A stretch of 31,890 bases of DNA. Source: Gemmatimonadota bacterium. Lineage in GTDB: Bacteria > Latescibacterota > UBA2968 > UBA8231. Position 1 is the first letter of the stretch; every line of letters begins with the position of its first letter. Below are positions 2,271 to 18,577 of this stretch, in pieces. The position numbers were made by a program, and so were the translations under genes. The notes beneath the pieces were generated by a model. The model saw only the letters and a list, made by a program, of their open reading frames with translations, was not told the origin of the DNA and ran no database searches. The stretch is from the NCBI GenBank assembly GCA_038153405.1, contig JAYOYH010000049.1, forward strand, positions 1-31,890, given 5' to 3'.

Positions 2271-2278
2271 ATTCCCCC

Positions 2279-2995
2279 CTATTTACCGAAGGAGCGCGAA
2301 ACGCTGCTCCCCCAACTGGAACGGCTGCGCGTCTGCCCCATGCGACTCGATACCTTGTTGGCAAACGACTGCCGACGCTGGGTATGGCGCTGGTAGAATT
2401 CGGGCCGCGTCTTCTTGGTTTGGCTCCCGCGCGTGCCAAACGTTGACCCGCCGTCCCCGCTCTTCGGTCCGTAGTAGGGCTGGCCGCGTTCGCGGTTGCG
2501 TCGATAGCTCTCCCAATCTGAGCGACCGACGCCCCAGCCCCCCATTAGATCGCGCATAAGGGCGTATTGGCCGTAAAACTGCCAGAATCCACCCCCACCC
2601 CAAAACCCATAGCTTGGATTGCCCACGTACTGGTATCCGGCCGGATACGCCTGCTGGGCACCCGTGCGCTGCCCCTCGAGGCTCTTGGAGGCAACGACCA
2701 TTCCCACGTAGTTTTCGTAGCGGCCAAACACCTCACTACTGACTTCGAGCCAATCCGTTGTGCGCTGGGTATACACTAGGGTATCTCCGCTTGCCGAACG
2801 CTGACCGGCGGCAGTGACCACATTAAATCGGAGAAAATAGTCCGGGAAAAAACCGTCCTCGAACTTTAGGTCGTCGAGAATAAGGGAGTATTCCGGATAA
2901 CGTTCCAAGTCTCGCTGCAGATCGCGCACCGGATCGGTGCCGCTACTGCATCCGCTGCACAGAGCCCATGCTGATAAAAAGAGGATTATTCGCAA
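2279..2995 (-). CDS. Hypothetical lipoprotein with Gly/Ser/Arg-rich C-terminal tail
   Basis: Start re-called to TTG at 2995 (AAGGAG just upstream, right after the DUF4178 stop); MRIILFLSAWALCSGC = lipobox-like signal; YVGNPSYGFW..FW.FYGQY motif; tail ...SRSSWGSSVSRSFGK. Confidence 0.75.
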   Translation of the reverse strand: MRIILFLSAWALCSGCSSGTDPVRDLQRDLERYPEYSLILDDLKFEDGFFPDYFLRFNVVTAAGQRSASGDTLVYTQRTTDWLEVSSEVFGRYENYVGMVVASKSLEGQRTGAQQAYPAGYQYVGNPSYGFWGGGGFWQFYGQYALMRDLMGGWGVGRSDWESYRRNRERGQPYYGPKSGDGGSTFGTRGSQTKKTRPEFYQRHTQRRQSFANKVSSRMGQTRSRSSWGSSVSRSFGK

Positions 2996-2999
2996 ACGC

Positions 3000-3542
3000 T
3001 CACTCCTTTGCGGCAGGGAGGATATCGGCGAATTGATATTCCTCCACCCGAAGGCCCGCATAAGCCGAAAATTCGCGATCTCCCCACTGGTTGATAAAGA
3101 GCACCTGTCCCCCATCGGCAGCAAAAGACCAACTGACAAATTCCCGGCCTTCTCCCGTTTCAGCTTCTCGATACAGGCCCGCACTCGACTCGATAGCATC
3201 GTAGTGCAACCCGGCGTAGGTCAGCTGCTCGGGCGGATCGCCATCGCACCGTATGGCCTCACCTACATCGCCGTCGATTGACCGCAAATCGATGGCCGCC
3301 GTCAGCGACCACAGCATGCGACCATCCTCTTCGCCGCCTTCTAAAAAGCGGATATCATCGCCGGAACGCAGGGTCCACTCACGCGCTATATAGCCATCGT
3401 AATCGTAAGTTCCACAGGCTGTTACTTGCCAGGTCTTCATATCGTAATCCAGCATATAGCCGACCTGCATGGAGGCGAGAGTCGGCTCCGTAAAGTCGAC
3501 ATCTTCTTCCTTTTTCTTGCCAAAAAATCGTTCGAATACCAT
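3000..3542 (-). CDS. DUF4178 domain protein
   Basis: Start re-called to ATG 3542 (GAAGGAG RBS); MVFERFFGKK.. then 'W.V....YD.....REW.L' pattern and acidic beta-rich body typical of DUF4178; operon context. Confidence 0.75.
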   Translation of the reverse strand: MVFERFFGKKKEEDVDFTEPTLASMQVGYMLDYDMKTWQVTACGTYDYDGYIAREWTLRSGDDIRFLEGGEEDGRMLWSLTAAIDLRSIDGDVGEAIRCDGDPPEQLTYAGLHYDAIESSAGLYREAETGEGREFVSWSFAADGGQVLFINQWGDREFSAYAGLRVEEYQFADILPAAKE

Positions 3543-3555
3543 AGTACCGGCTCCT

Positions 3556-5115
3556 TCAGAACCAAGCGCTCCAGTCCTCACGATAATAACGCGATAGGAC
3601 GGGCTTATCAAGTCGGTTTATTGGGGTTGCAATGCGCCCCATATCCCCGGAAAAGACCTTCATAGCTTCCCAGACATGGGCATCTACATGGCGAAGGGGC
3701 GCACTAAACTCTATCTGAGTATCGCGCGCATTCCGCATGCCCAGCTGAAAGCCCCATTCGCCAAAGGAAGGCACATTGAGGTGGTATGGCACGACGTGCA
3801 AACCAGCCGCCTCCATCGTCTTGCCAATGCACCAAAAGGCGCGCCGGGCATAGTAAGGCGAAGTGGCCTGCGTCACCATCACCCCCCCGGGGGCTAGCAA
3901 GCGCTTGGCCATTTCGTAGCCTTCGCGCGAGTAGAGCTTCGCCAACCCCTCCTCGCGGGGATCGGGCAAGTCAAAGAGCACGACGTCGTATGCGGGATGA
4001 TCCCGCTGTAAAAAGGCGAACCCATCGGCATGGGTTATATGCACCTGCTGTCGGTTGAGGGCATTTTGGTTGATCCGCGCTATGTGGGGATTGCGCGCAG
4101 CTAGGCGCGTGACGGCCGGATCCAAATCGACCAGATCGACGTGTTCGACCTGCGGATATTTTAATACCTCCCGCACGGTCAGCCCGTCCCCGCCGCCAAT
4201 AACCAGAACGCGTTTTTTTGCATGGGCCAATTCCATAGCCGGATGCACCAGCGCCTCGTGATAGCGAAACTCATCGACCGAGGCAAATTGCAAATGGCCG
4301 TCTAAGTAAAGGCGAATCTGATCGCCGCGGGTCGTCAGCACGATGTTCTGATAGGCCGACTGTTCCTGGTGGGCAATGGGGTCTTCGTACATGGCACTTT
4401 CCCACGCCCCAACAAGCGGTTGAGTATAGAATAGAAGGGCGAGCAGAAACGCACCGACGGCGCCGACCTGAGCGTAGAGCATCCTCTTTAAGCGGATATC
4501 GATCTGTCGTCTAAAGGTCAGCAAGACGGCCAATCCCACCGCCCAATTGACGATGCCCGTGAGCACAGAAGTATACATGGCGCCCCAAAAGGGCAGCAGC
4601 AGGTAGGGGAACAGAACGGCGGCAAAGAGCGAGCCGCAATAGTCCATGGACAGCGCATTGGCCAGAGCCGAACGCAGCGAGTCGTACTGGCGGAGAATGC
4701 GCGTCAGCAGAGGTATTTCCAACCCTATCAGCGTACCAATGCAGACGATGAGTAGGAGCATACCATAGCGAAAGTGCCCAGTATAGGTATAGAGAGCGTA
4801 GAGAATGCTTACGGCACTGCCGCCTATCCACGCCAGGCCAATTTCAACCTGAATAAAGCGCACGAGCAAGTTGGCGTGAATCCAACGGGAAAACCAGGAG
4901 CCCAGCCCCATCGAGAACAGAAAGAATCCAATCGTCAGCGAGAATTGCTCCACGCTCCCTCCCAGAAAGAGCGCAGATGTGCTGCCAATGAGCAATTCGT
5001 AGACTATGGCACAACCCGCTGCAACGAGGATCCCTGCCAACAGCATCGACAGGCCCAGGCGCGAAGGTCTATCCTCCATGGTCGCGTTATCCACGGAGGG
5101 AAGTATTGAATTCAT
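3556..5115 (-). CDS. speE: Polyamine aminopropyltransferase (spermidine synthase) with N-terminal multi-TM domain
   Basis: About 7 N-terminal TM helices; LYLDGHLQF, DEFRYHEALVHP, VLVIGGGDG, VDLDP, DLPDP, VPSFGEWGF motifs; alternative start at 5079. Confidence 0.9.
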   Translation of the reverse strand: MNSILPSVDNATMEDRPSRLGLSMLLAGILVAAGCAIVYELLIGSTSALFLGGSVEQFSLTIGFFLFSMGLGSWFSRWIHANLLVRFIQVEIGLAWIGGSAVSILYALYTYTGHFRYGMLLLIVCIGTLIGLEIPLLTRILRQYDSLRSALANALSMDYCGSLFAAVLFPYLLLPFWGAMYTSVLTGIVNWAVGLAVLLTFRRQIDIRLKRMLYAQVGAVGAFLLALLFYTQPLVGAWESAMYEDPIAHQEQSAYQNIVLTTRGDQIRLYLDGHLQFASVDEFRYHEALVHPAMELAHAKKRVLVIGGGDGLTVREVLKYPQVEHVDLVDLDPAVTRLAARNPHIARINQNALNRQQVHITHADGFAFLQRDHPAYDVVLFDLPDPREEGLAKLYSREGYEMAKRLLAPGGVMVTQATSPYYARRAFWCIGKTMEAAGLHVVPYHLNVPSFGEWGFQLGMRNARDTQIEFSAPLRHVDAHVWEAMKVFSGDMGRIATPINRLDKPVLSRYYREDWSAWF

Positions 5116-6748
5116 GACCTAAAAAGGCCATGGCCTCTTCCGCTGCGGCAATGCCCGAATAGAGCGCCTCTTCAAAGAGGGGCAAACCCGAACGGTCGCA
5201 GCCGGCCAAAAATACACCACGCGGCCCCCGTTGACGCCACCGACTTTCCTCACCCCACAGCAGGCCCGGAGCCGGCCGCAGGATGCCGTGTCCCCATCGA
5301 TAGATATCGATGCGCTCAATGCTATCGGCCATTTCGAGATCGGTTTGCGCTAGATCGCTGACGATAAACTCAACCCAGCGGCGATGATCGGCCTGCAGCA
5401 GTTCCCTGCGCGCCGCGGCAAGCCCATCGACAAAAGGCAAATAATACACCAGCACTTGCCGCCCGTTAGCAGACGGATTTTGGTGCGAGGCGTTTATATA
5501 GCCCAGCGAAGTGCTGGCATAGACGACACTATCCCAAGCTGACACCGACCGCTCCCTCCCCTCTTTTATCAGCACAGCAGCTACCAACCAAGGGCTGTAC
5601 TCAAGCGCCCTCAGCGCAGCCTGCTGTGCTGAGGGTAACTGGGGCAGCACATAGGGCAAGGTGTGCAGTTTCCCTGCGTAAATTACCGCATTGGCGCGGA
5701 TGAGCGATCGCGCGCCTGCGCCGAGGTCAACCAGCGAGAGGCGTTGCGCTTGACCACCCTCTTCGATGCGCATGACCAAGTGCTGCGTCCACACTTGGTC
5801 CGCTTCCAAGCCGGCGCTCAGTCCCCGCACCAGACGGCCATTGCCATCGGGCCAAGTCAGGGTATGGGATGGGTATTGATCGCTTAGGCGATAATCGTAT
5901 TCGCGGCAGGCAAAATAGTGTATGCCAGCCCAAGCCGATACATTACGCGCGAGGCTGCCGTAGTCGTCGCGACAAGCGTAATCTACGTACCAGCGCAGGG
6001 GGGCGCTGTCGAGCCCCTCTTGCCGCAAGTAGTCTGCCATATTTAGCTGGTCGAGTGCGCGCAGTTGGGGATCGCCGCTGCTGTAGCGCAGCGGCAGAGT
6101 AAAAGCGCGACGCCCATCGCGCCCTTTGTACAAGGCCCATCGCAGCATAATATCGCGAAAGCGCAGCAGATCTTCGCGCTGGCTAGCAGAGGCGGCAGCC
6201 AGCGGTTCTAATCCCTCCTGCCAGCGCCCGTCGACAAAAAGCCGTTCGTGCGGCCAGCGCAAAAGGGCATCGGCTTCTATCAGCGGCCAGCCGCGCGCAT
6301 CGTAGCCCTCAATGACGCCGATATCGCACAGCACCTCGTGCACGCAATCGGCCTCGCGCGGAGGCACGTTGATATAGTGAGCGCCCCAGGGATGAAGCAC
6401 GCCGCCCAGCTCGCCGCTGAGCGATGTCCCCCCGCAAGCTGCACTTTGTTCCAATACGACGATGCGCTCGATGCCGGACTGCCGCAGCTTCCAAGCCGCA
6501 CACAGACCCGAAACGCCACCGCCGACGATGGCCACATCAAAGGGCCTATGGCCCAGGTCGGCGTAGGCGCTCTCGTCCTTACCCTCACCAGACCAAAGCG
6601 CGTGAGCTGCGACCGGATTGGGATTGGCAAAAGCCCCACCAATGCCAGCGACATCGGCCACTGAGGTCGCGTCGCCCAAGTGGCAGCCGATGCCGTGCGG
6701 CCAGCTACTGCAGGCGGCAAGAAGCTTGATAAACGCTCGGCGTTTCAC
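5087..6748 (-). CDS. FAD-dependent oxidoreductase (flavin amine oxidase family), Tat-like signal
   Basis: MKRRAFIKLL twin-arginine N-terminus; DVAIVGGGVSGL dinucleotide fold; GG/WGAHY motifs; YACRDDYG, RWGHG, LPLFEEA motifs seen in speE-linked oxidases. Confidence 0.85.
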   Translation of the reverse strand: MKRRAFIKLLAACSSWPHGIGCHLGDATSVADVAGIGGAFANPNPVAAHALWSGEGKDESAYADLGHRPFDVAIVGGGVSGLCAAWKLRQSGIERIVVLEQSAACGGTSLSGELGGVLHPWGAHYINVPPREADCVHEVLCDIGVIEGYDARGWPLIEADALLRWPHERLFVDGRWQEGLEPLAAASASQREDLLRFRDIMLRWALYKGRDGRRAFTLPLRYSSGDPQLRALDQLNMADYLRQEGLDSAPLRWYVDYACRDDYGSLARNVSAWAGIHYFACREYDYRLSDQYPSHTLTWPDGNGRLVRGLSAGLEADQVWTQHLVMRIEEGGQAQRLSLVDLGAGARSLIRANAVIYAGKLHTLPYVLPQLPSAQQAALRALEYSPWLVAAVLIKEGRERSVSAWDSVVYASTSLGYINASHQNPSANGRQVLVYYLPFVDGLAAARRELLQADHRRWVEFIVSDLAQTDLEMADSIERIDIYRWGHGILRPAPGLLWGEESRWRQRGPRGVFLAGCDRSGLPLFEEALYSGIAAAEEAMAFLGHEFNTSLRG

Positions 6749-6785
6749 GCCTAAGCCCTAGCCGCACGCATCGGATCGGGCCGCC

Positions 6786-7484
6786 CTACATGCCCATTTT
6801 GGCTTTGAGTTTAGCCAGTGAATCGTCGGAGGATGCACTGCTCCCCAGCGCTTTTTCGATTTCGTCGTCCACTGTCTTCGTGCCGTCGGCCATTTCACCA
6901 TAGGCCTGAGCCAGCGATTCCTGCTCTTCGACCTTGGCTTTCATGCGCTCTAATAGGCCCACTGTTCCTCGCGAGTCGACATTGGCCAAATGCTGGTTTA
7001 TTTTGCGCGTAGCATTGGCCGTTTTCGTCCGCGCTTTCAGCGTGACCAGATCGTTTTCGTAGGAGCCAATCTTCGACTTCAAATCGTTGACATTGGACTG
7101 CAGTTTAGTCGCCATCTGCTGCTGCTGCTCGGCCTGGGCCAACGTTTCGACATGGCGCTGCTGCGATTCCTCCATGCGCGTGAGGGCTTCGCGCGCAAGG
7201 CGTTCGGCTTCCGCTTGCTCCAATTGCCCATCCTGCGCCTTCTGCAACAGCAGCATGGCCTTGCGCTCGTAGTCGGCAGCCCGATTGCCGTGCTCGTCTC
7301 GTTCGCGCTCAAGGCGAATCGCAATGGCCTTTACTTCGGCTAGAGCCTGCGTGCTCTCATGCAGATCTTTTTTTAAATCGCGAATAGCCTGTTCGCTCAT
7401 TTTTATGGGATCTTCTAACTTATCGATTACGGCATGGGCCTCGGCCTGGCCCGTTTTAAACAGTCGTTCAAATATGCCTGGCAT
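6786..7484 (-). CDS. pspA: PspA/IM30 (Vipp1/ESCRT-III-like) family protein
   Basis: Start ATG 7484 (GGGGAG RBS); amphipathic MPGIFERLFK, LEDPIKMSEQAIRDL, long coiled coil, ERMKAKV, C-terminal LAKLKAKMG. Confidence 0.92.
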   Translation of the reverse strand: MPGIFERLFKTGQAEAHAVIDKLEDPIKMSEQAIRDLKKDLHESTQALAEVKAIAIRLERERDEHGNRAADYERKAMLLLQKAQDGQLEQAEAERLAREALTRMEESQQRHVETLAQAEQQQQMATKLQSNVNDLKSKIGSYENDLVTLKARTKTANATRKINQHLANVDSRGTVGLLERMKAKVEEQESLAQAYGEMADGTKTVDDEIEKALGSSASSDDSLAKLKAKMGM

Positions 7485-7488
7485 GATT

Positions 7489-7887
7489 TTACTCCCCTGC
7501 AAAAGTCAAAAGTTCGTCGCCGTTTTCGGCTAACCCTAGGCTTAGGGCATTTAGCGTGCCTTCCAATTCGTTGAGGTCGAGATTTTCTAGCGCAAGCGTA
7601 TTGCGGTAGAGCAGCGCATCCCCCTCTTCATTCAGCACAAAAGCGCCGTAGACCAATTCGCGATTCATTTGCAGCAGGCGCTTATAAACGGCCGCATCGG
7701 CGCTGTTGGGAATACGGATTATAAGTTGCTCTATGACGAGTACGGTTTCCTCGCAGTCGATCACGAGGTGATTGATCGCCCGTTCTTCGTCGTGGACAAT
7801 TAAGATCTCCTCCTCGGAAATCTCGCGCTCAATAGCCAACCCCAAATCGAGGACGTACTCTCGAACCTGGCTTAATGCTTCTGACAT
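7489..7887 (-). CDS. YbjN / CesT-like chaperone-fold protein
   Basis: 132 aa, acidic; 'LLQMNRELVYGAFVL', 'NLDLNELEGTLNAL' motifs; GAGGAGG RBS; directly upstream of pspA. Confidence 0.8.
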   Translation of the reverse strand: MSEALSQVREYVLDLGLAIEREISEEEILIVHDEERAINHLVIDCEETVLVIEQLIIRIPNSADAAVYKRLLQMNRELVYGAFVLNEEGDALLYRNTLALENLDLNELEGTLNALSLGLAENGDELLTFAGE

Positions 7888-8113: not shown

Positions 8114-10741
8114 CTAGTACATCAGCGACGAAACGGCTTTGTTTATCATGGCGAGTGCTGCGGCCAGCATGCCGATAAGCGACATGCCGACGCCAAAGCC
8201 AACGCTCAGCACCATGGCGTAACGCCGCCATTCCTGCTTGCCATAGCGACCCCAAAAGTAGTAACGCCCCAACAGGGCCCCTATGATCTGTGGAATGAGA
8301 AAGTGGGGTATGCCGTTTACGCTTTGGACGTAGCCCCAGATCAAAAATATGGGCATGCCGAGAACGGAGAGGGTAAAATAGGCCGTCAAGCCAAATCCTG
8401 CGCCGAAGGCGATGATCGGCCACTTGCGCCCCTGCAGTGGATGGTGAAAATCCTCGTCGACCATTCCGTCGCCGTCGTCGTCGCGGCCGTTGACGACTTC
8501 TTCATCAATCCTACCGTCGCCGTCGTTATCGCGCTGATCTCCCGTAAAGCGCAGATCCTCCCACAGCACCTCAAAGAGCAGCGGCGTATCGGAAGAGCGC
8601 TGCAGAAACTCGCCGTCAAAGGACGGCAGGCGGTCGACCTCAAAATAGAAATCGACGGTGTCTCCTTCTGCTACAACAGCCTTGGCGCGAAAGTTGGGAT
8701 TGGGCGTATCGAGCACCGCGCCATTGGGAGGCCAAATGAGGACCGGCCCCCCGCCTTGCTCGCCTTGTGCTTTTAGGTCTTGCACTCCTTCTGGGACGCG
8801 TTCGGGCGGACTATCCCCATTGAAATCGGTGTAAAAATATCCCGTCTCTGACCAAGCTCCATAGGACCGTTTAACGGGGTCGAGCACATCGACATCGGCC
8901 GTTGTGGTCGCGCGCCAATACCACCATCGCCCGTCTTGTAAATTGCTCGGATTCCACACCGCCTCCCCGCGCACGAGGCGCTGGCCGTCGACTTCTTCTC
9001 CCGAACGCCACATCTTGCTGTACATCGTGCTCGATAGGTAGAGTGCCTGGTCAAAGGCGCGCAGCGGCCACATAAGCTGAGCATAGGGATAGCTCTCAGA
9101 GGGTATGGGCGCCAGCCGCCAGAGAAAGGTCCAGTACATCAGACTAATGCCGAGAACTATGGGCAGCATAAACAACTCGGCCTTGAGCAGGCTAGTAAAT
9201 TTCATACCCGTCAATTCGACGACGCGAAACCCCTCGGCATGCCCACCAAAGTTTCGGGCTGGAAAGGGCACAAACCATATTTCGACACCGCGAAAGCCGG
9301 TCAGAAAGCGGATGGCCTCGTCTATATATGGGATAGAAATCTCTTTGCCTACTAATCCATCGAGACGTGCGCTGACAAAGGACATAATGGGTGCGTAGAT
9401 AAAGGCAATCATAAAGAAGAGCATTAACAGCCAAACGCTCACCAAGGTAGGAAATAGCACCTTGGCCAATACAATCGGATAGATTGCTGCTACGCAGAAC
9501 AGTGCCGCACAGACCCACAGATTGAAGTCGCCTCGTCCAAGGTGTTTGAGACAGTAGCCGCGAACTTCGGCGTGCTGATTGCATTCGTGGTGTTTACATA
9601 TGCCCGCCAGTCCGCTGGCGTTGTCACTGCGCAGTTTTTCCGCTGCTTCTTCGCGCTTTTCTCGGCCAATCGTAAAGAGTTGATAAAAGGAGACAACGGT
9701 CACGGCCAGCGTAATGCCGATGGAAAAAGCGCGCCAGAAATCAATGCCCGTAGCAATTTGGGTGCGGATGGTATCCATCCCCACCTCCCAGCGCGGCAAA
9801 TAGCCCAGATCATAGAGGAATGGGCTGGCAATTGTGTGTATCATGACGCCGGAGAAGGAGCCAATAACTGACCAGAACGGCATGAGCAGCCCAGAAAATA
9901 TAGGGCCGAGATTGAGCGCTATGCCCAACGGGGTCGCCGGCATGACATTGCCCAAGTAGTCCGTTAAATCCCAGAACGGAATAGGCAAAATTTCAATTCG
10001 ACTGCCCCATATTTGCGTCACGGCAGGGATCCCCACATAGACGATGCCGAAAACCGTGCCAATGGCTGCACCAATGCTGAAAACCGGCCACTTCCACGAT
10101 TCATCCTCGTCTCCGCTCTCTTCGGCCAGGGCCATGGACGAGAGTGCCGACATGGGCGCAGTAGGAAAGGGCAACTGCTCCCTATCAGAAGTGAGCCTGA
10201 ACAGCATATAGCCCGAGGTGAACCAGGCGATGCGTCCCATGATGGTGCCGACGATCAATAAGAGGATGGGGACGGCCCAGTCGCGGTGGAAGAAGGTGCG
10301 TTCGGCAATGGCCTCCGAATCGGGTCCGGGCGCCCACCACCAGGGCAGTATCCGCGAAATGCCAAATTGTTCGGCCTCGGCTGAACGCACGAAATACTGG
10401 CGCCACAGCAAGTCCAAAAAGGCGCCCTCTTCGCGCGCGACCAGCGCGGACGCAACGTAGACCAGCAGGTAGATCTCCTGCCTGCGCAGCGAAGTGAACG
10501 AGCGCTTGGCCACTTCGAGAAAGAGAATAACGGTCACCCATTGAGCCGCAGCGCCGATGCCTCCACCGGTAAACAAACCCAGGTACATTTCGCCGGGCGT
10601 CATGATCAGCGAGATAAAGAGCACGCCGATAATGGTGCGGATGGTGAAGCCCTCTTCAAAGCGGTCGGGCGGCTCGAGGAGTTTGCGATACTCCTCTACT
10701 TCTTCCCACTGCCTTTTCTTTTTTTCGTCCTCGGCGCTCAT
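8114..10741 (-). CDS. OPT/YSL-like oligopeptide transporter with inserted zinc-finger-like loop, Fn3/Ig-like domain and DxDGDG repeats
   Basis: Many TM segments; OPT-like hallmarks FTIRTIIG, LRRQEI, EQLPFP; C-terminal 'GFGVGMSLIGM'; about 200-aa soluble insert before the last TMs. Confidence 0.7.
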   Translation of the reverse strand: MSAEDEKKKRQWEEVEEYRKLLEPPDRFEEGFTIRTIIGVLFISLIMTPGEMYLGLFTGGGIGAAAQWVTVILFLEVAKRSFTSLRRQEIYLLVYVASALVAREEGAFLDLLWRQYFVRSAEAEQFGISRILPWWWAPGPDSEAIAERTFFHRDWAVPILLLIVGTIMGRIAWFTSGYMLFRLTSDREQLPFPTAPMSALSSMALAEESGDEDESWKWPVFSIGAAIGTVFGIVYVGIPAVTQIWGSRIEILPIPFWDLTDYLGNVMPATPLGIALNLGPIFSGLLMPFWSVIGSFSGVMIHTIASPFLYDLGYLPRWEVGMDTIRTQIATGIDFWRAFSIGITLAVTVVSFYQLFTIGREKREEAAEKLRSDNASGLAGICKHHECNQHAEVRGYCLKHLGRGDFNLWVCAALFCVAAIYPIVLAKVLFPTLVSVWLLMLFFMIAFIYAPIMSFVSARLDGLVGKEISIPYIDEAIRFLTGFRGVEIWFVPFPARNFGGHAEGFRVVELTGMKFTSLLKAELFMLPIVLGISLMYWTFLWRLAPIPSESYPYAQLMWPLRAFDQALYLSSTMYSKMWRSGEEVDGQRLVRGEAVWNPSNLQDGRWWYWRATTTADVDVLDPVKRSYGAWSETGYFYTDFNGDSPPERVPEGVQDLKAQGEQGGGPVLIWPPNGAVLDTPNPNFRAKAVVAEGDTVDFYFEVDRLPSFDGEFLQRSSDTPLLFEVLWEDLRFTGDQRDNDGDGRIDEEVVNGRDDDGDGMVDEDFHHPLQGRKWPIIAFGAGFGLTAYFTLSVLGMPIFLIWGYVQSVNGIPHFLIPQIIGALLGRYYFWGRYGKQEWRRYAMVLSVGFGVGMSLIGMLAAALAMINKAVSSLMY
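8449..8543 (-). repeat. Two tandem protein-level DxDGDG..DE putative Ca2+-binding repeats
   Basis: GDQRDNDGDGRIDEE / NGRDDDGDGMVDED in the 875-aa protein. Confidence 0.75.
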
Positions 10742-13700
10742 TTACGCACTTTCAACTGCGGGTTCAACGGATTGGACGAGCAAGCTGTCCGCCGTCGTCC
10801 GATGGTATGCCCTCATATCTTCGGCTAGCGTATGCCACAGCAGAAATTCTTTGCGCAGACCGTTTATAAAGCGCCTGTTGACCCGCTGCCAGAATGTGTC
10901 CTGCCCGCTGATCCGCTCGATGTAAATTTCAACTGTATACACTCCGCGGACCGGCGTGGGCAAAAATTCCAGCTGCAAAAACTGGCTGACGCCCATATCA
11001 AAGGGGGCCAACCACAGGAGCAACTGCACGGCATACTCGCGCCCCGCCTCGCCCTCATCGGCAACTATGCGCACTTTTTCAGCGTAGAAATCGCCGATGG
11101 ATTCCTCGCTGTAGGAATTAAAGTAATTGGCGAGAAAGCCGCATAATCCTTGAACTTCGGCCTCGCTCACCATAAAGGGAAACTCAAACTCCCAGCGGTC
11201 CCCCTGCGGTTCGGGCGGCACCCACCGGCGCACCGTATCGGGAACGGAAGCGCGCGCGGCCACCTTGGCCGGATAAATGGTGGACAGCAGGACGACGGCC
11301 ATGACTAACATCGACGATACAATAGCCGACCACGAGGAGTAGTTTAAATTCATTCCCTGCAGCCAGTCAAAGTAAATCAGCACCTTTCCCAGCCCCTGAC
11401 CCAATATGTAACCCAGCGTTACGCCAATAACGGCATATACCACCGCCTCGGCGATAAAGAGCAGGGCGATGTGCATGGGTGCCAAGCCGACGGAAGAATA
11501 AATGCCGATCTCGCGAAAGCGTTCGTATACGGCGCCCATCATCGCATTGAGTACGATAAGCGCAGCAATAAACATCGGAATAACCAACGCGCCCAACCCC
11601 TCGACATTGGTCATACCCATAGACGTGTAGGAATAGACGCCAATGGGCCCATCGCCATCGCCGCGCAGGCCGGCAAAGAGCGTAATGGCCAAGCGCAGAA
11701 GGAAGTCTTCGACCAGGCTCCGCCCGTTCACATCGGACGAAAAGCGCACGGCGACCGAGCGCAGCGTACCGCCAGCCCCGCGCAGCGTGTTATAGGGCAA
11801 GACGACGATATTCTCGGCGTCGAGATGAATAAAGGGCTTGATATCGAGAGCGCTCTCGCTCACTTCCATGGTCATGTTGTCGACGGCATCCGGACCCAGC
11901 GCCTGCGCGCTCGACATCTGGAAGTCGGCGGGCGTCAACGGTTCGTTATCCAAATCGCGCACGGCCTCAAAGGCTGCGGCTGAGAACACTCCGCGCACCG
12001 TCAATTCGCGGCCGAAAATTTGCACCTTTGCCGAACCCATCCCTTCGTCGTCGACCCCGAGAAACTCAGCCGCCTCTTGCGAAATCAAACAGGCATCCAC
12101 GTCGTCAGAAGCGAAAAATGAACCCGCGACAAGCGCTTGTTCAATAGCGCTTACCCCTCTTTCCTCGGGCATTAATCCCAGCAGGCCAGTAGCGCGAACG
12201 ACGCGGTCACCGCGTTCGACTTCGATGTATTTTTTTTGCTCGTCGTCAGAAGCCATATACCAGTTGCGCGGCACGACGAGGGCATCGCCTTCAAAATGGG
12301 AGCGGGCGTAGTCCAGAGTCGGCATATTCAGTTCCGCCCAGTTGCGGTCGCGAATAAGTACGCCCTCGTACGCCCCCTCGTGATCCATGGTAAAGGCCAT
12401 ATACCGCACTTGCGAATTGAACGAAGTAAAGGACAGCACGGTAAACGTGAGCAAGACCAGCGTCAGCAGCGTCAGTCCCGTTCGCATCTTGCGCCGGCGC
12501 ATATTTGAAATGCCCAGCATAAAGGCCGCGTAGGAAGCACTGGTGCGACTGATATCCGTCTCGTGGACGTGGGCATCCCTCGACTGATACTCCTTCATAA
12601 AGCGATTGAAGCGGCTGATGATCATCGAGAGCACAAGGACCGCCATGGCCATAATGGCGAAAGCAAGCAAAACGACGAGTGGGTGAGCTATGGCAAAGGC
12701 GGGATGCACTTGGGAAATGACAATCCACACCACGAAGAGCAGGCAGAAAAAGCCCAACAACTGCTTGCGCACGTCGGAGGCGGCAAAGAGCAGGCGTTCC
12801 CCGAAGAAGGCCGACGGGATGACGAGGGCCAGAAAAAAGACGATGCCCTTTATGACGTCGTTGAGTGTTTCTAGCACTTCGGGGTAGGCGCGCGTGGTAA
12901 CGCCCAACCCGGCGCGAACATTGGAAATATAGGATTCCCAATCGCGGTTCTCTTCGGCCTGCAGGGCATTTTCTATGAAGATACGGCCGCTTTCGTGCAG
13001 GCGCGTAAGGCGCTGGTTTTCGATAGCGTGCTCGCGCATCGTATGCAGGCGCGCTTCGTTGAGATTCCACATATCGCGCAGAATGAGCATACCGGTGCGC
13101 GTCAATTCCTCGCGCGTCAGGTCGTAGCCCCTGCCGCGCGCCATATTTTCGTTCTCACTGCCTTCGCTGTTGAGCAAGAGCATGCGCCCGTTGACCATCA
13201 ACTTTAATCCCGAGCCCTCATCGGCATCTTGTGGCGCAAAAAGCACCCCTACCGGCTCGCGCCAACCGCGCACCATGCCGTACTGGCGCGGGGCGACTCC
13301 CGTCTGATCCATCACGCGCACTTCGCCAAAGGGGCCCAGCGAACGCGGGTCGATTAGACCGTAAAATGCCGTTGAAATACTGGGAAAAAGAACGATGGTA
13401 TTTTCGTTCATCTGCCAGCGAATATTGCTGCTGAGTATCCACCCTGCCGTGGGCGCCCCGTGAAACTTCTGTGCGCGCTCGCTTAGATCGGGTGCGTAAA
13501 TGATATCGCCGCTCTCGTCGTCGAGCAGATAGGCACTAATCCCCGTTGCCCCCGTGCGCAATCCAGGAATCAGCACATTCCCCTTCTCGTCGCTGAGGTG
13601 GTAGTGAGACCAGTGCACCCCTTTGTGGGGTTTCATGCCCGGTCGCACCGAGACCACGGCCCCAGAGATAGGGCGATCCGGCACCTGCGAACGCCGCGGG

Positions 13701-15145
13701 AAAGCGCGAATCTTCGTGCGCAAACTGCGCAGATTATCCTTTAATACAGGGGTAAAATCCTCGAGATCGGCGAAGAGTTCTGGGTCGTTAAAGGCGCGGC
13801 CTAACAGTCGGTTAAGCAGGTCGCTCTGCCTTTGTAAATTGGCAAAGTTAACGTTGGCTACTACGTCGTGGGGCGTGTTCACACCATAGCGCCCGTCATT
13901 GACCGTGACTAAGGCCAGCGAAACAATGCCGGCGTCGAGCGCCTTCATGCTATTAACGCTGACGCCGCCCGGAACAAAGGTGTCCCAATCCATGCCGCGA
14001 ATAGGGCTGATTCCGTTGACGAGGGAACGCTCGGGATCGCGCCCCAACAAGGGCGCGAGTTCCTCGTTATATGAAGAAAAGCGGCGGCCAAAGGGGACGA
14101 AAAAGCGCTTCAAATCGTAGCTATTGGTATTGTTCCACAGCCCCAATTGATCGGTTTGCGTCGTTAGATCAAGGCTGATAAACAGGCGCGGATCGAACGG
14201 CTCCTCCATTTTCGGAACGTAGAACTCGTGCTTGCGGGCATGGCGTTCGAGAAAATCGGCAATGCCGCGCTGCCCCTGAAAATGGGCATCGGTAGCGACC
14301 AATATAACCGTTCGCTCTGGCGGATTGGTGCGCAGGAAACGAGCCAATTCGAGCAGGGCGGCTATGCTGCTGGCCATTTCGGCGGAAGGGGCCAGCGCAG
14401 GTACGACGGAAATGCCGTCGTAATAGGCTTCAACTACGATGGTCTCTTTACTCAGTTCGGGATCGGCCCCGGGAAAGCGCGCCCATATATTCCACGCTTC
14501 GCGCTGCCGCCAATCCATGCGCCCGTGCAGCAGAGCGCGCTCCTCGCCGTCGCCGACCAGTGCCTTTAGCTGCAGGCCCTCCTCCCTGCCAATCCAGAAG
14601 CGCGGTACATCGAGCGGAACGCCGGCGAACTTTTCATCCGCCTGCGCTCGGGTCGTCTGCTCTGGCTCTATAAAGACGATGGCGCGCGCACCTAGGGAAG
14701 CGGCGCGCAGCCAGTTGTTCCAACTGTTAAAGTCAAGTATTATGATGCGCCCATCGAGCGCTTTGCCCTTGAGATCGCGATAGCTGCCGTCCCCGCCATA
14801 GACGATGGGGGCCTGTAGCCCCTCTCTTGGCAGCGTCGTCGTGCGCACTAGGTTGGGCCAAATACCGTGTAGGGAAAATACCTGCCCGTGGCCATCCAAC
14901 TGCAGCGAGCCCCCCCGATCGATGGGCACGGCCATAGAGAAGGCTTCGCGCACGACGTTCAGACCGAGCGCGCGCAGATTGTCCTCAACGAATTGGGCCG
15001 CCTTTTGTCCACCGGGATAGCCGCTCAAACGCGACCCCAGCGAAGCCATGTACTCCACCGTCTGGCGCAGACCGCTCTCGTCGGCCCAGCCAGGGGCCGC
15101 CAGCGCGCAGAGCACGAGCAAATATCGCCTAGCAGTTCCCATCAT
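10742..15145 (-). CDS. Fusion: signal peptide, degenerate M28 peptidase/PA domain, beta-sandwich and helical region, 3 TM, MacB/FtsX-type permease, C-terminal soluble domain
   Basis: Start likely 15145 (ATGA overlap with upstream stop); SRLSGYPG, ETIVVEAYYD, AALLELAR, FISLDL (M28 fold); NMRRRKMRTGLTLL (MacB TM1), ERFREIGIYSSVG...LFIAEA (FtsX coupling helix). Confidence 0.8.
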   Translation of the reverse strand: MMGTARRYLLVLCALAAPGWADESGLRQTVEYMASLGSRLSGYPGGQKAAQFVEDNLRALGLNVVREAFSMAVPIDRGGSLQLDGHGQVFSLHGIWPNLVRTTTLPREGLQAPIVYGGDGSYRDLKGKALDGRIIILDFNSWNNWLRAASLGARAIVFIEPEQTTRAQADEKFAGVPLDVPRFWIGREEGLQLKALVGDGEERALLHGRMDWRQREAWNIWARFPGADPELSKETIVVEAYYDGISVVPALAPSAEMASSIAALLELARFLRTNPPERTVILVATDAHFQGQRGIADFLERHARKHEFYVPKMEEPFDPRLFISLDLTTQTDQLGLWNNTNSYDLKRFFVPFGRRFSSYNEELAPLLGRDPERSLVNGISPIRGMDWDTFVPGGVSVNSMKALDAGIVSLALVTVNDGRYGVNTPHDVVANVNFANLQRQSDLLNRLLGRAFNDPELFADLEDFTPVLKDNLRSLRTKIRAFPRRSQVPDRPISGAVVSVRPGMKPHKGVHWSHYHLSDEKGNVLIPGLRTGATGISAYLLDDESGDIIYAPDLSERAQKFHGAPTAGWILSSNIRWQMNENTIVLFPSISTAFYGLIDPRSLGPFGEVRVMDQTGVAPRQYGMVRGWREPVGVLFAPQDADEGSGLKLMVNGRMLLLNSEGSENENMARGRGYDLTREELTRTGMLILRDMWNLNEARLHTMREHAIENQRLTRLHESGRIFIENALQAEENRDWESYISNVRAGLGVTTRAYPEVLETLNDVIKGIVFFLALVIPSAFFGERLLFAASDVRKQLLGFFCLLFVVWIVISQVHPAFAIAHPLVVLLAFAIMAMAVLVLSMIISRFNRFMKEYQSRDAHVHETDISRTSASYAAFMLGISNMRRRKMRTGLTLLTLVLLTFTVLSFTSFNSQVRYMAFTMDHEGAYEGVLIRDRNWAELNMPTLDYARSHFEGDALVVPRNWYMASDDEQKKYIEVERGDRVVRATGLLGLMPEERGVSAIEQALVAGSFFASDDVDACLISQEAAEFLGVDDEGMGSAKVQIFGRELTVRGVFSAAAFEAVRDLDNEPLTPADFQMSSAQALGPDAVDNMTMEVSESALDIKPFIHLDAENIVVLPYNTLRGAGGTLRSVAVRFSSDVNGRSLVEDFLLRLAITLFAGLRGDGDGPIGVYSYTSMGMTNVEGLGALVIPMFIAALIVLNAMMGAVYERFREIGIYSSVGLAPMHIALLFIAEAVVYAVIGVTLGYILGQGLGKVLIYFDWLQGMNLNYSSWSAIVSSMLVMAVVLLSTIYPAKVAARASVPDTVRRWVPPEPQGDRWEFEFPFMVSEAEVQGLCGFLANYFNSYSEESIGDFYAEKVRIVADEGEAGREYAVQLLLWLAPFDMGVSQFLQLEFLPTPVRGVYTVEIYIERISGQDTFWQRVNRRFINGLRKEFLLWHTLAEDMRAYHRTTADSLLVQSVEPAVESA

Positions 15146-17298
15146 ATCCAAAAGATGCCGTTGCCAATTTTACCCGTGAAATAGTCAATGACCAGCCATA
15201 TCCCATTGCACAGCACCTGCCCGCAAATTAAACCCAAAAAGAAGTACTGACTGCGCTTAAACATCGTCGCCCCGCCGTAGCGCATGAGGCACTTTTTTAA
15301 AAACCACGCAAGAAAAACGCTGAACCAGACGTGTTCCATAAGCGAGTTGCCGCCGATGGGAAAGCCTATCGGATGCAGCGGCCACCACGGGAAGCGCTGC
15401 CTAGCCCACATCATTGCCGTCATCACCACGCCGCCGCCGGCAAAAAACGAAAGCCCGTCCCAGTAGACGCCAGTTGGTTCGAAATTGCGCAATGCGTGCT
15501 GGTAGGCCACCTGTGGTGCGCTTTTAAAAAACCAGCTATTGAGATTGATGCCCCCATGCGAATAGGCCATGTGGAAAATCATCCAGATAGAGCCCAGCGC
15601 CCCAATAAATAGGGCCAACACAATGGCGGCAAAAACCATCCGGCGCAAGCGAGGAGGCATTTCCTCAATCAGCTTCAACGCATTGGCGCAGTTGGCCATG
15701 ACGAAGACGCGTACATCGGCCGCCCAAATATAGGTCATTGAAAGGTTCCACACACTCGAAGGGCCTATTAGCTGAGATCCCAAACCGAGCGTTAATAAAT
15801 CGGGGGCGATCATCGGCGTGCGGACAGCGGCGAGGCCCGCCTCGGCAACAATCCGGGAAATGCCGATAAAAATCAATATCGCCACAAGGACAAAGACGAT
15901 GGCAACCCATGCTTTAGTCCCCATGATCCACAGCCACAGCGCCATCAGTGCCATACCGCCGACAGCGCCAAAAAAAGCGAGGCGATAGGAAATAATTTCA
16001 TCGCTATCATCCGCGTCGGTATTCATGCCTAGTGCCTTGAACACGACGCCTTTAAAGTGCTCCCGTCCCACCCATAGCCCAACCAGCACCATGGCGATCA
16101 GTGCGCCGACCCCCTGATAAGCCATAAAGGGAAAATCGGCTACGCCATAGCCAATTTTCTGCTCGGATTTAAATCCAGCAACGGTGAGAAATTCTTTTTC
16201 AAACTTCGAGAAGATATGAAAAAACCAAATGCCCGCGGCAATGTTGGCGTTTATGAAGTAGGAGAAACCCACCATCGCAAAGCTTATGCTCAGGCGCAGC
16301 GTCTGCTTGCCCATCAGCGGCAAAAACCAGAGCAGGCGCACTACGGGGTAGCTGGGATCGTACCGGTGTAGGGCCTGAAGACTGCCGATAATCAGCGGCA
16401 GGGCGGCCCCCAACCACATCGCCCGCCTGCGCAGAAAGCGATTCCACGAGGTCTCGCCGTCTTCTTCTCGAACAATCGACAGGGCCACCTGCGTTATGGG
16501 ATAGCTCAGCCGCTCGCGCTCCATCCACTGGCGGCGCAGAATAACAGCCACGCATACCATGCACATGTACAGCCCGAGGAAAAAGGCACCCCACCAACAC
16601 AGCGGCTCTAACCAATGCTCCCAGGGCAAGTCCATCCCCGGCTCAATTCCCTCGTAAAATGACGTATTGTCGTTGCCATCATTGACCAGAGCCGGACTGT
16701 CTCGCATAATGGGGAATAACTTTTCCTGCCACTTATTCTCCGGCGTAGCAAAGTAAAAAACAGCCGTTATCATCGGCAGGAACTGTTCGCTCAGGCCCAT
16801 AGTACACAGAGCCGATACGATGAGCAGCATCGCATACACGACGATCAACTCGGCGCGATTTAGGGCAATGCCGTTCTTTTCGCGCGCGCAGGCGAGGAGG
16901 TTGCCCAGCGATAAGAGGACGATAAAGAGAAAGAAATAAGAGCCGGGAGAATAGGGATCCCACGACGAAATACCGTCGTAGGCATAGACAAAAGAGGCAA
17001 CAGCCACTCCGCTAACAACCAGCGACCGACTCAGCGTAGCCGTCCATTTTAGCGCTGCGTTAATGGGGCCCACTAAGACCAGAAATAGCGCAATAGCACC
17101 CGGCGTGCTGAAGTCGAGCGCCATATAGGAACCGCGAATAATCATATTGCCATAGGGCGCGCCGACGGCCAAGAAAAAACTCAAAAAGGCCCCCACGGCA
17201 AATGCGCGCGGACGCAGATGTAAGTCTTCTGCGGAAAAAAGAGAATCCGTTCGCCCCTGCAAATAGTTAACGTATTCGCCAGGAATAAATCGCTTCAC
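15142..17298 (-). CDS. DUF6785/DUF6784-like polytopic membrane protein (putative peptide transporter, OPT-like)
   Basis: 718 aa, many TMs; LNRAEL, W..W..P..WW, LRRQWMERERLSYP, RIVAEAG, WWPLHPIG, RYGG, FFLGLICG motifs; GTG start. Confidence 0.75.
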   Translation of the reverse strand: MKRFIPGEYVNYLQGRTDSLFSAEDLHLRPRAFAVGAFLSFFLAVGAPYGNMIIRGSYMALDFSTPGAIALFLVLVGPINAALKWTATLSRSLVVSGVAVASFVYAYDGISSWDPYSPGSYFFLFIVLLSLGNLLACAREKNGIALNRAELIVVYAMLLIVSALCTMGLSEQFLPMITAVFYFATPENKWQEKLFPIMRDSPALVNDGNDNTSFYEGIEPGMDLPWEHWLEPLCWWGAFFLGLYMCMVCVAVILRRQWMERERLSYPITQVALSIVREEDGETSWNRFLRRRAMWLGAALPLIIGSLQALHRYDPSYPVVRLLWFLPLMGKQTLRLSISFAMVGFSYFINANIAAGIWFFHIFSKFEKEFLTVAGFKSEQKIGYGVADFPFMAYQGVGALIAMVLVGLWVGREHFKGVVFKALGMNTDADDSDEIISYRLAFFGAVGGMALMALWLWIMGTKAWVAIVFVLVAILIFIGISRIVAEAGLAAVRTPMIAPDLLTLGLGSQLIGPSSVWNLSMTYIWAADVRVFVMANCANALKLIEEMPPRLRRMVFAAIVLALFIGALGSIWMIFHMAYSHGGINLNSWFFKSAPQVAYQHALRNFEPTGVYWDGLSFFAGGGVVMTAMMWARQRFPWWPLHPIGFPIGGNSLMEHVWFSVFLAWFLKKCLMRYGGATMFKRSQYFFLGLICGQVLCNGIWLVIDYFTGKIGNGIFWI

Positions 17299-17431
17299 TG
17301 CTAAACTATGCCTCGCACCCGAGAAAGTTTACAACCATTTAACGCGAAAAAATACGCCTCTTGACCGATTGCGGCAATTGCTATTGAATTCACACACACG
17401 TTGTTTAACGGAAGTCAAAATGGGGATGCAT

Positions 17432-18577
17432 ATGACTACACGCCAGCGCTTTTTATCGTTTGCTCGACCTCTATTACGCTGTCCTACGGCCCCCTTTCAC
17501 GAGCACTACCCGCTGGAAGTCATAAACCAGTTTATCCAGCAGCGCCCGGCCTTGGGCATAGAGCGGGACCAATACGGCAACTTGCTCATACTCTATAACG
17601 GCACGCGCAGGAGGAGTCAGCCCCGCCTTATTCTCACGGCACACCTAGACCACCCGGCCCTGCTTTGGCACGACCAAATCGCCCCCACCCAACACCTATT
17701 TGGACTCTACGGAGGCGTACAGGCCGCCCTATTGCGCGGTGCGTCCACTTGCATTTACCAGAGGCAAAAAGGACGCACCCAACGTCCACTAAAAGGACGC
17801 ATCTCAGCTGTCGATACCCCTTCCAAGGGCCGAACTTGCGTTCTTGTCGACATCCAGCGCCCCCTAACTGAACAGGCAGAAGTCGGCACGACCTTTGCCA
17901 CGTGGGACCTACCGGCATGGCGACTGCGCGGCAATAAGCTGCACGCGCTAGCCTGCGACGACTTGGCCGGTGCGGCGGTCGGACTGTCCTTTATCGATTC
18001 GCTATGGCAAAGGGGCGCGCCTACGCGCGCCGGCCTGCTGCTCACGCGCGCCGAGGAAGTGGGCTTTGTCGGTATGTTGGCCGCCCTACAGAGTGGCCTA
18101 TTAGATCCAGATGCACTCTACATCAATATCGAATGTTCCAGTATAAAAGCGGGAGCGGTCATGGGAAAGGGACCCGTCGTGCGCGTGGGCGACCGACTGC
18201 GCATCTTCGATCCGCAGATCAGCGCCGCGCTGACGGCCTGCGCCGACTTGCTACAGAGCAACCAAGAGGGGTTCACCTACCAGCGCCGCCTAATGGATTC
18301 CGGTGCCTGTGAGGCAACCCCGCTAGTTCAGGCCGGCCTGCAAACGGGGGCCGTCGCCCTACCGCTGGGCAACTACCACAATATCGGGGAAAAGAAATTG
18401 CAGACTGAGTGCATTCACATTGAAGACGCCTGCGCACTCGTCGATTTGCTGGTATTTATGACCGAGACCGATGGAGGCCCAGCGCGCGCCCTGCAAGCGG
18501 CTTCGCAGGCATTGGACGACGATCTGAATCGCCGCTTGCACAGCATGCGCGCGCTCCTCAAGGAGACTTCGCTGTGA
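17432..18577 (+). CDS. M20/M42-like zinc metallopeptidase/hydrolase (cytoplasmic)
   Basis: Full clan MH ligand set: TAHLDH, ACDDLAG, RAEEVG, NIECS, GNYHN; DQYGN motif; no signal peptide; start uncertain (17420/17426/17432). Confidence 0.8.
   Translation: MTTRQRFLSFARPLLRCPTAPFHEHYPLEVINQFIQQRPALGIERDQYGNLLILYNGTRRRSQPRLILTAHLDHPALLWHDQIAPTQHLFGLYGGVQAALLRGASTCIYQRQKGRTQRPLKGRISAVDTPSKGRTCVLVDIQRPLTEQAEVGTTFATWDLPAWRLRGNKLHALACDDLAGAAVGLSFIDSLWQRGAPTRAGLLLTRAEEVGFVGMLAALQSGLLDPDALYINIECSSIKAGAVMGKGPVVRVGDRLRIFDPQISAALTACADLLQSNQEGFTYQRRLMDSGACEATPLVQAGLQTGAVALPLGNYHNIGEKKLQTECIHIEDACALVDLLVFMTETDGGPARALQAASQALDDDLNRRLHSMRALLKETSL

Follow-up and report, generated by a model that had tools for sequence, protein, structure and literature searches.

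An FtsX-type permease subunit of uncultured bacteria and archaea with a predicted M28-fold head that appears to lack the di-zinc peptidase site

A single open reading frame (ORF) in a 31,890-nucleotide (nt) stretch of DNA from Gemmatimonadota bacterium (GTDB Latescibacterota; UBA2968; UBA8231; assembly GCA_038153405.1, contig JAYOYH010000049.1, positions 1-31,890 of the forward strand), referred to at its full length as the window, encodes a fusion of an M28 peptidase-like head to an ATP-binding cassette (ABC) permease subunit (Table 1). From N- to C-terminus the fusion comprises a probable signal peptide, a head made of an M28 core with a protease-associated (PA) insert, a beta-sandwich and helical stalk, three extra transmembrane (TM) helices, a MacB/FtsX-type four-TM permease with a periplasmic domain, and lastly a C-terminal domain. 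Residues are numbered throughout from the TTG start; the true start is probably the ATG at 15145, because that codon overlaps the upstream gene's stop and the protein is called at 1467 residues in the database. The permease is of the FtsX/MacB four-TM type with its periplasmic core between TM1 and TM2, as judged from Pfam, hydropathy, and profile matches to MacB, YtrF, LolC and LolF. A gene for another membrane protein lies on either side of the fusion gene, and the group is called the cassette here.

The head matched the Pfam M28 family (PF04389) at residues 221-339 with 27.6 bits against a cut-off of 21.3, and an AlphaFold model of residues 24-470, built on a 72-row alignment, had a predicted local distance difference test score (pLDDT) of 96.5 and a predicted template modelling score (pTM) of 0.94. 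In fold searches its nearest neighbors were active PA-containing M28 aminopeptidases, namely BSAP (6hc7; VIA Z 32.3, root mean square deviation (rmsd) 4.6, 369 aligned), 2ek8 (VIA Z 30.1) and AAP (1amp; VIA Z 28.6, rmsd 2.3, 254 aligned). Weaker VIA matches were TfR1 (Z 25.4), CA_C2195 (3k9t, Z 22.2) and a GPI transamidase chain (7w72_A, Z 18.6), and glutaminyl cyclases were also among the matches. On the evidence of the model, the head has the M28 (clan MH) alpha/beta fold. The original prediction had described an M28 head without most of its metal and catalytic residues; the five motifs that it quoted were all found in the ORF at 14428-13865, and the fold was confirmed by Pfam and the model.

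The register of the old di-zinc site was set by HMMER alignments to solved peptidases. AAP positions follow the customary numbering of that enzyme, and Glu151 is named in the title of PDB entry 2anp. Both His ligands and the Glu ligand are replaced, and an acid is found at no more than two of the five ligand positions. The predicted change of the first His to Tyr, the loss of the EE pair and the change of the last His to Asn were all upheld in this register, and the loss of these canonical residues is shared by homologues. The bridging Asp, which had also been described as lost, could not be aligned unambiguously, the loop being one residue shorter than in the peptidases; Glu258 pairs with it in the alignment to BSAP, but with the residue before it in the alignment to AAP. 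A carboxylate may remain at this position, and loss of the Asp is one of two readings. The claim that only the Asp of FISLDL remains was correct in that Asp328 is the one clearly kept ligand position, but Asp245 of the HxD motif is kept as well, and Glu258 may count. A 30-row core profile found its best PDB match in 2anp, an engineered Glu151-to-His mutant of AAP whose His aligns with His290.

The genome holds six paralogues of the fusion, the window copy and five on contigs C5, C7, C8, C17 and C60, which are 35-52% identical. Three ordinary M28 proteins of the same genome, used as an internal control, keep the His-x-Asp motif, the bridging Asp and the EE pair under the same profile, whereas the six fusion paralogues do not. 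At positions 400, 402 and 425 the window protein has Asn, Met and Asn, against Asp, Glu and Asp in most relatives. By alignment, the canonical di-zinc peptidase site is absent from the head.

Homologues of the full fusion numbered 495 among 7997 candidates scored, and most of the 120 listed were 1430-1520 residues long. Conservation was counted in three sets, which cover the best-scoring matches listed: 119 close homologues (the 120 listed of the 495 minus the window's own entry), the 150 top-scoring of 2021 representatives, and 116 of the 120 proteins hit with a Bathyarchaeia member as query, four long LysM fusions having been dropped. The union of the second and third sets contained 264 proteins, 245 of them with letters at all six scored positions. 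Glu was found at position 290 in 0/245 and at position 291 in 0/245, so the substitutions, for which a check across homologues had been proposed, are conserved; His at 425 occurred in 1/245. None of the five canonical ligands was kept in 3 proteins, one in 173, two in 55 and three in 14, and never four or five (n=245). Asp245 (1.00) was the second most conserved of 435 positions, at 119/119, 148/149 and 116/116 in the three sets. Against a median conservation of 0.43, His290 reached 0.95 (rank 20) and Asp328 0.91 (rank 33), and Ser248 (0.97), Thr416 (0.94) and Arg421 (0.92) were likewise within the top 33. His290 occurred together with Asp or Glu at 328 in 225/245. Position 243 was Tyr in 77% of the union, and some members have His, Phe, Asn, Pro or Ser there; Glu258 was present in 64%, the others having Thr, Asp, Gln or Ser; and position 425 was Asp in 65%, with Gly, Arg, Asn or Tyr elsewhere. 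The M28 core (identity 0.51) and the remaining outer part (0.42-0.49) were similarly conserved.

Because of these counts, the canonical site appears to have been lost when the family arose or earlier, the pocket appears to be still under selection, and no alternative set of metal ligands seems to be common to all members. His at 243 was scattered over a midpoint-rooted FastTree tree (243 rows; support values not read), and no order of loss is claimed. A metal site rebuilt family-wide from Glu258, His290, Asp328 and Asp425 was considered and rejected, for Glu258 is found in 118/119 of the close bacterial set, but in only 55/116 of the archaeal-query set, where Asp425 is found in 51/116. The earlier suggestion that the new His could form an altered metal site was not supported as worded: His290 is a hallmark of the family, no novelty of the window protein, and takes the place of the catalytic Glu rather than of a ligand, and a rebuilt site is not family-wide, since Glu258 and position 425 vary and the latter is Asn here. 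Neither of the two canonical zinc triads is complete in the window protein; a non-canonical site made of Tyr243, Glu258, His290 and Asp328 is conceivable. An artefact or a decaying gene was ruled out by the intact ORF, the equal length of homologues, and substitutions common to homologues and all six genomic paralogues.

Table 1 Features of the fusion gene, its neighbors and its candidate partners. Positions are those of the window except where a contig is given.
Feature	Location	Strand	Description
Fusion ORF	10742..15151	-	1469 aa from TTG; 1467 aa from ATG at 15145
PA insert	14507..14929	-	About residues 75-215; from alignments to 6hc6 and 2ek8 and fold matches; boundaries approximate
M28 core	13757..14506	-	About residues 216-465, plus residues 24-74 ahead of the PA insert; non-canonical site
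AYYD	14417..14428	-	Residues 242-245; Tyr243 replaces first His ligand; Asp245 of HxD kept
SAEMASS	14366..14386	-	Residues 256-262; bridging-Asp loop, one residue shorter than in peptidases; carries Glu258
DAHFQG	14273..14290	-	Residues 288-293; His290 at general-base Glu position, Phe291 at Glu ligand position
FISLDL	14165..14182	-	Residues 324-329; Asp328, the one clearly kept ligand position
T416-x-x-D419-x-R421	13889..13906	-	Family motif directly ahead of last ligand position
VNTPHD	13865..13882	-	Residues 424-429; Asn425 replaces last His ligand
Middle region	12857..13744	-	Residues 470-765; transthyretin/CnaB-like beta-sandwich, second beta region, three-helix stalk
MacB-like periplasmic core domain	11636..12370	-	Residues 928-1172; Pfam PF12704 at 891-1099, 26.2 bits, E 1.1e-5, slightly below cut-off 27
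FtsX permease C-terminal domain	11246..11587	-	Residues 1189-1302; PF02687, E 2.1e-13
DUF6785/DUF6784 membrane protein	15142..17298	-	Upstream; stop overlaps fusion start
875-aa polytopic membrane protein	8114..10741	-	Downstream; starts right after fusion stop
Short FtsX	G000:C18:18805-19533		Candidate partner
LolD-like ATPase	G000:C18:19442-20326		Candidate partner

A complex was predicted between residues 24-772 and the periplasmic domain (928-1172), with the protein's own alignment and one Zn included. It scored 0.82, compared with 0.00 for the best of three controls; a benchmark placed 116 of 157 solved complexes and 2 of 215 mismatched pairs at this score or above, a calibration that is only rough here, given the protein's own alignment and the included zinc. 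The runs shared at least 92% of contacts, with a partner pLDDT of at least 79. The best-defined predicted contacts linked residues 418-422 and 332-333 with 1046-1048, and PA residues 167-170 with 1124-1127; others involved the loop 387-395 and PA residues 124 and 165-170. Two residues of this interface, Asp419 (47/48) and Gly1047 (46/48), were highly conserved. The docked loops would form the rim of the old site, since 3-7 residues separate them in sequence from ligand positions 425 and 328. The score could also stem from resemblance to a solved structure, though PDB searches gave no M28-on-MacB complex. The model supports binding of the head to the periplasmic domain, but does not show it. 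The middle region between them was modelled with a pLDDT of 92.8 and gave weak fold matches to generic beta-sandwich and helix types only (best Z 9.2, rmsd 3.4, 80 aligned).

A candidate partner for the permease is encoded elsewhere in the genome. This is a short FtsX protein of 243 residues with four TM helices and about 50 residues between TM1 and TM2, whose gene is followed by one for a LolD-like ATPase (G000:C18:18805-20326; L058:7806-9327). Contig C2 carries a second ATPase of this subfamily, which no permease gene adjoins (G000:C2:108262-109083; L057:8263-9084). The ATPases were assigned to the LolD/MacB/YbbA group, and no match of this system reached an NCBIfam equivalog cut-off. Among 61 genomes sampled from the phylum, the fusion was present in 48, in multiple copies, the short FtsX (E <= 1.3e-34) in 44, with one strong copy each, and the ATPase subfamily (E <= 1e-70) in 43. 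Every genome with the short FtsX or the ATPase subfamily was also positive for the fusion, and the fusion-positive genomes without them were 60-89% complete. In one family (f9) the fusion, the short FtsX and the ATPase were each found in 0/13 genomes, 7/13 giving only generic FtsX hits of 1e-16 to 1e-18. Eight loci were picked for closeness of hits: five carried the fusion, the OPT-like downstream gene of the cassette, an unnamed gene, the short FtsX and the ATPase on one strand, and in the other three the ATPase lay directly upstream of DUF6785. The short FtsX is likely the partner subunit of the fusion.

Taken together, these observations lead us to favor, with modest confidence, a reading of the head as a non-peptidase, cargo-binding head of a type VII (MacB/LolCDE-like) ABC machine. 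The giant subunit would pair with the separate 243-residue FtsX, in which a short loop stands where a periplasmic domain would be, and both permease subunits would be powered by the LolD-like ATPase. The loops beside the old site and the PA lid are predicted to pack on the permease's periplasmic domain, the ATP-driven movement of which, as expected from family membership, could open or close the pocket. A cargo, for which the ancestry of the fold makes a peptide or a similar group the most plausible choice, would thereby be taken up, retained or passed on, and the two large membrane proteins encoded alongside might deliver or receive it. In this reading His290 and Asp328 would persist as the floor of the pocket, joined by hydrogen bonds, and not as ligands of a metal.

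Several points weigh against this reading. No ATPase or short FtsX adjoins the cassette in the window, and the absences in family f9 probably amount to one loss rather than thirteen. In the complex model, stalk residues 600-607 and 739-754 supply part of the interface, most of the other interface positions are only moderately conserved, the docked chains are two parts of one protein, and the assignment of contacts to the pocket lining follows from sequence neighborhood alone. An almost invariant His in exactly the place of the general base is also what would be expected of a catalytic residue, and the corresponding AAP mutant is titled 'functional' in PDB 2anp. An acid at 258, His290, an acid at 328 and an acid at 425 are jointly kept in 146/245. 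Finally, 13/245 have His243, Asp258/259 and Asp328, by sequence one complete canonical zinc triad and thus a possible single-metal site. These 13, all from the archaeal-query set (P0283, P0292, P0300, P0313, P0314, P0319, P0321, P0351, P0365, P0366, P0370, P0376 and P0388), are the best candidates for metal-binding members.

The same residues could belong to a repurposed enzyme, which we regard as possible but on the unlikely side. New chemistry would then use His290 as general base or acid with Asp328, helped by Ser248, Thr416 and Arg421 or by one metal held by Glu258, Asp328, Asp425 or Tyr243, and the ABC motor would feed it substrate as YbbAP feeds TesA. The conservation of the His290-Asp328 pair favors such an enzyme, as does a His at the Glu151 position with the E151H mutant as the top PDB match of the core profile. 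There are also precedents, since M28 folds have been reused with one zinc in glutaminyl cyclases and in CA_C2195, which binds one Zn with an altered site (PMC4000134), and the periplasmic partner of YbbAP is an enzyme (PMC12646458). On the other side, no metal-ligand set runs through the family, positions 243, 258 and 425 being as variable as described above, His290 is replaced in 8/116 of the archaeal-query set, and the window protein has drifted further at positions 400, 402 and 425. The E151H mutant of AAP reportedly keeps both zinc sites, of which the window protein has neither. Certain acids of glutaminyl cyclases we take to be equivalent in position to those kept in the head. Because these acids form a hydrogen-bond network in the cyclase (PMC10435661), retention of the acids would need no metal.

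We consider it rather doubtful that the domain is purely structural, that is, with a vestigial pocket and a head that serves as a rigid cap or as a docking platform for another envelope protein, His290 and Asp328 being kept for folding. Many of the most conserved positions are indeed Gly, Pro and the structural residues Arg41, Asp245 and Asp429, the predicted interface could close the pocket instead of framing it, and transferrin receptors use the fold for protein-protein binding (PMC4000134). However, His290, Ser248, Thr416 and Arg421, which ordinary M28 proteins do not have, show 92-97% conservation over a range from Latescibacterota to Bathyarchaeia and Heimdallarchaeota, and folding by itself would hardly account for this. 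In addition, positions 291 and 399-402 vary between the genome's six paralogues, as would be expected of specificity residues. An ordinary di-zinc M28 aminopeptidase, as the automatic labels have it, is scarcely credible: Pfam M28 scores above its cut-off, the nearest folds are active aminopeptidases and several entries are so named, but at most two of five ligand positions are acidic, both His and the Glu ligand are replaced, the catalytic Glu is absent in 245/245, and the three ordinary M28 proteins of the genome show canonical motifs under the same alignment.

Nicastrin, nicalin and GPAA1 are M28 folds with lost catalytic or metal residues. A separate matter, which concerns descent and is compatible with any of the readings above, is whether the family is the prokaryotic ancestor or sister of the nicalin/nicastrin ectodomains; this we think improbable. 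The bacterial core profile ranked nicalin second at 35.9 bits, above wild-type AAP at 30, with a gap-free alignment of the YYD-to-PGAE loop, the full profile matched nicalin over 335 positions (E 1.2e-10; nicastrin E 0.01), Heimdallarchaeota, Kariarchaeaceae and Baldrarchaeia all include members of the family, and a precomputed Nicastrin hit is attached to one member. In the archaeal profile, by contrast, 2ek8 (124 bits), BSAP (93), the transferrin receptor (64) and AAP (51) all came above nicalin (43), and nicalin keeps the first His and is without His290. The Nicastrin hidden Markov model (HMM; PF05450, cut-off 25) gave 14.7 and 13.4 bits on two paralogues and no hit on the window protein, but 22.1 on an ordinary M28 protein of the genome; 3/30 family members were hit at E <= 0.1. 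Nicastrin and nicalin were not among the best 50 rows of either VIA fold list, which does not exclude likeness. A special kinship, which had begun as a lead from a motif likeness and the bacterial core profile, was not upheld by the HMM scores or the archaeal profile, and the likeness is best treated as an analogy. It is as an analogy, too, that the proposed resemblance to the receptor ectodomains of nicastrin and transferrin receptor stands; the nearest folds are active aminopeptidases, the Nicastrin HMM prefers an ordinary M28 protein, and the head is predicted to dock on the periplasmic domain of its own ABC permease.

Compared with the PA-containing M28 aminopeptidases (Bacillus subtilis YwaD/BSAP, 6hc6/6hc7; Aneurinibacillus AM-1, 2ek8; Aeromonas/Vibrio proteolyticus AAP, 1amp), which gave the best structural and profile matches, the head shares the fold, the position of the PA insert and the motifs SR..G.PG, xxD and T..D. 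It differs in that other residues stand in for the catalytic Glu and for three ligands, two His and one Glu, the bridging loop is shorter, and the protein is membrane-anchored and fused to an ABC permease. With transferrin receptor 1, nicastrin, nicalin, GPAA1 and CA_C2195 (DUF4910) it shares an M28 fold that has lost catalytic or metal residues (PMC4000134 for transferrin receptor and CA_C2195), but its pattern is Tyr / Glu / His-Phe / Asp / Asn, it is part of an ABC permease chain, and specific descent is not supported. Non-peptidase M28 homologues are a known class with more than 550 members in MEROPS (PMC4000134). The nearest layout is that of YbbAP-TesA, where a hydrolase-fold domain sits on a MacB-type periplasmic domain and the ATPase is of the LolD/MacB/YbbA group. 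Type VII systems typically pair with a periplasmic partner, and TesA sits on YbbP's periplasmic domains, its active site facing the transporter (PMC12646458). TesA is a separate, active esterase, whereas here the head is fused, of M28 type and without the canonical site, the partner would be a separate short FtsX, and two more large membrane proteins are co-encoded. As in LolCDE, MacB, FtsEX and YtrEF, the fusion has an FtsX permease domain and a MacB-like periplasmic core, and two unlike permease subunits with an ATPase, as in LolCDE, may be present. Unlike these type VII transporters, it has an N-terminal outer part of about 750 residues, three extra TM helices and a C-terminal domain, and there is one short partner per genome versus several paralogous giant subunits (six here). 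General background came also from PMC3426542, PMC4320195 and PMC7505659.

The fusion family comprised 656 representatives at E <= 1e-30. Close hits were named Latescibacterota, Gemmatimonadota and Handelsmanbacteria, and the wider range included Bathyarchaeia, Thermoprotei, Baldrarchaeia, Kariarchaeaceae, Heimdallarchaeota, Armatimonadota, WS1 and Planctomycetota. Mislabeling by automated pipelines, which had been anticipated, was found in the form of NCBI names such as 'M28 family peptidase' on fusion entries P0112, P0264, P0287, P0343, P0347, P0360 and P0399. Genome surveys of these uncultured groups count the fusion as a secreted peptidase, and the capacity of the groups to break down protein would be overestimated as a result. 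Inactive M28 folds have been described before, nearly all of those studied being eukaryotic; in the searched literature none was fused to an ABC permease. The literature search, which covered titles and abstract openings of mostly non-subscription papers, gave no paper on the fusion or on DUF6785. New here are the quantified site pattern with His290 as a family hallmark, the range into archaea including Asgard, the predicted docking at the pocket rim and the likely short FtsX partner.

If true, the cargo-binding reading would give type VII ABC transporters a further function and another kind of architecture, with many heads on a single motor that they share, and would point to a defined pocket around His290 and Asp328. 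More speculatively, and with low confidence in the whole, the family could represent an ancient and undescribed type VII class of several uncultured bacterial phyla, TACK and Asgard archaea, in which one short FtsX and ATPase motor drives several interchangeable giant subunits. Each M28 head would be rebuilt around the His-Asp pair for metal-independent or single-metal chemistry, or for ATP-gated capture, acting on peptides that two OPT-like permeases supply or accept, and the nicalin/nicastrin ectodomains could have arisen close to the archaeal members.

The neighbors of the fusion recur with its paralogues, the five other copies in the genome each adjoining DUF6785 and/or an OPT-like gene. 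In some homologues (P0040, P0054, P0055 and P0119) the DUF6785/DUF6784 protein is joined to the fusion's C-terminus, and in the C5 copy such a joint protein is 2123 residues long. The 875-residue downstream protein scored 21.2 bits against the OPT family (PF03169), below the cut-off of 25.8, and fell in the Atlas cluster 'Peptide transporter family protein' at 0.90. The only two PF03169 hits in the genome were cassette members; four relatives of the OPT-like protein gave no Pfam hit and one relative no PDB sequence hit, and the OPT label is weak. At about 8400-9020 (- strand) this protein has a soluble insert with two acidic DxDxDG-type repeats, possibly calcium-binding, a stretch that is missing in the C7, C17 and C60 paralogues. 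No ABC ATPase was found within 9 kb of the six cassettes of the genome, nor beside the cassette in loci L001-L006. In five relatives an unnamed gene of about 300 residues, without a Pfam hit, separates the OPT-like gene from the short FtsX (L059:4987-5877), and it also follows the C8 cassette (G000:C8:105430-106422).

Other observations concern the surroundings of the cassette. A TPR protein precedes the fusion in L059, and the C7 copy is preceded by genes judged by eye to be ExbB/ExbD-like. Some family members carry extra fusions, with a long N-terminal extension, PPIase domains or LysM domains in precomputed Pfam assignments (P0200, 2769 residues; P0326; P0390-P0393). On the other strand of the window, 17369-18577 (+) encodes a divergent M42/M20-like peptidase (PF05343) with a ligand set that looks complete by eye (HLD, DD, EE, E, H) and no obvious signal peptide, and it has the same position in L001, L003 and L004. 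The downstream run of the window at 1422-7887 (- strand) encodes a CesT/YbjN-like chaperone, PspA/IM30, an FAD amine oxidoreductase, a polyamine aminopropyltransferase (above the NCBIfam cut-off), a DUF4178 protein, an unknown protein and a DUF350 protein, and parts of this run recur after the cassette in L001, L003 and L004.

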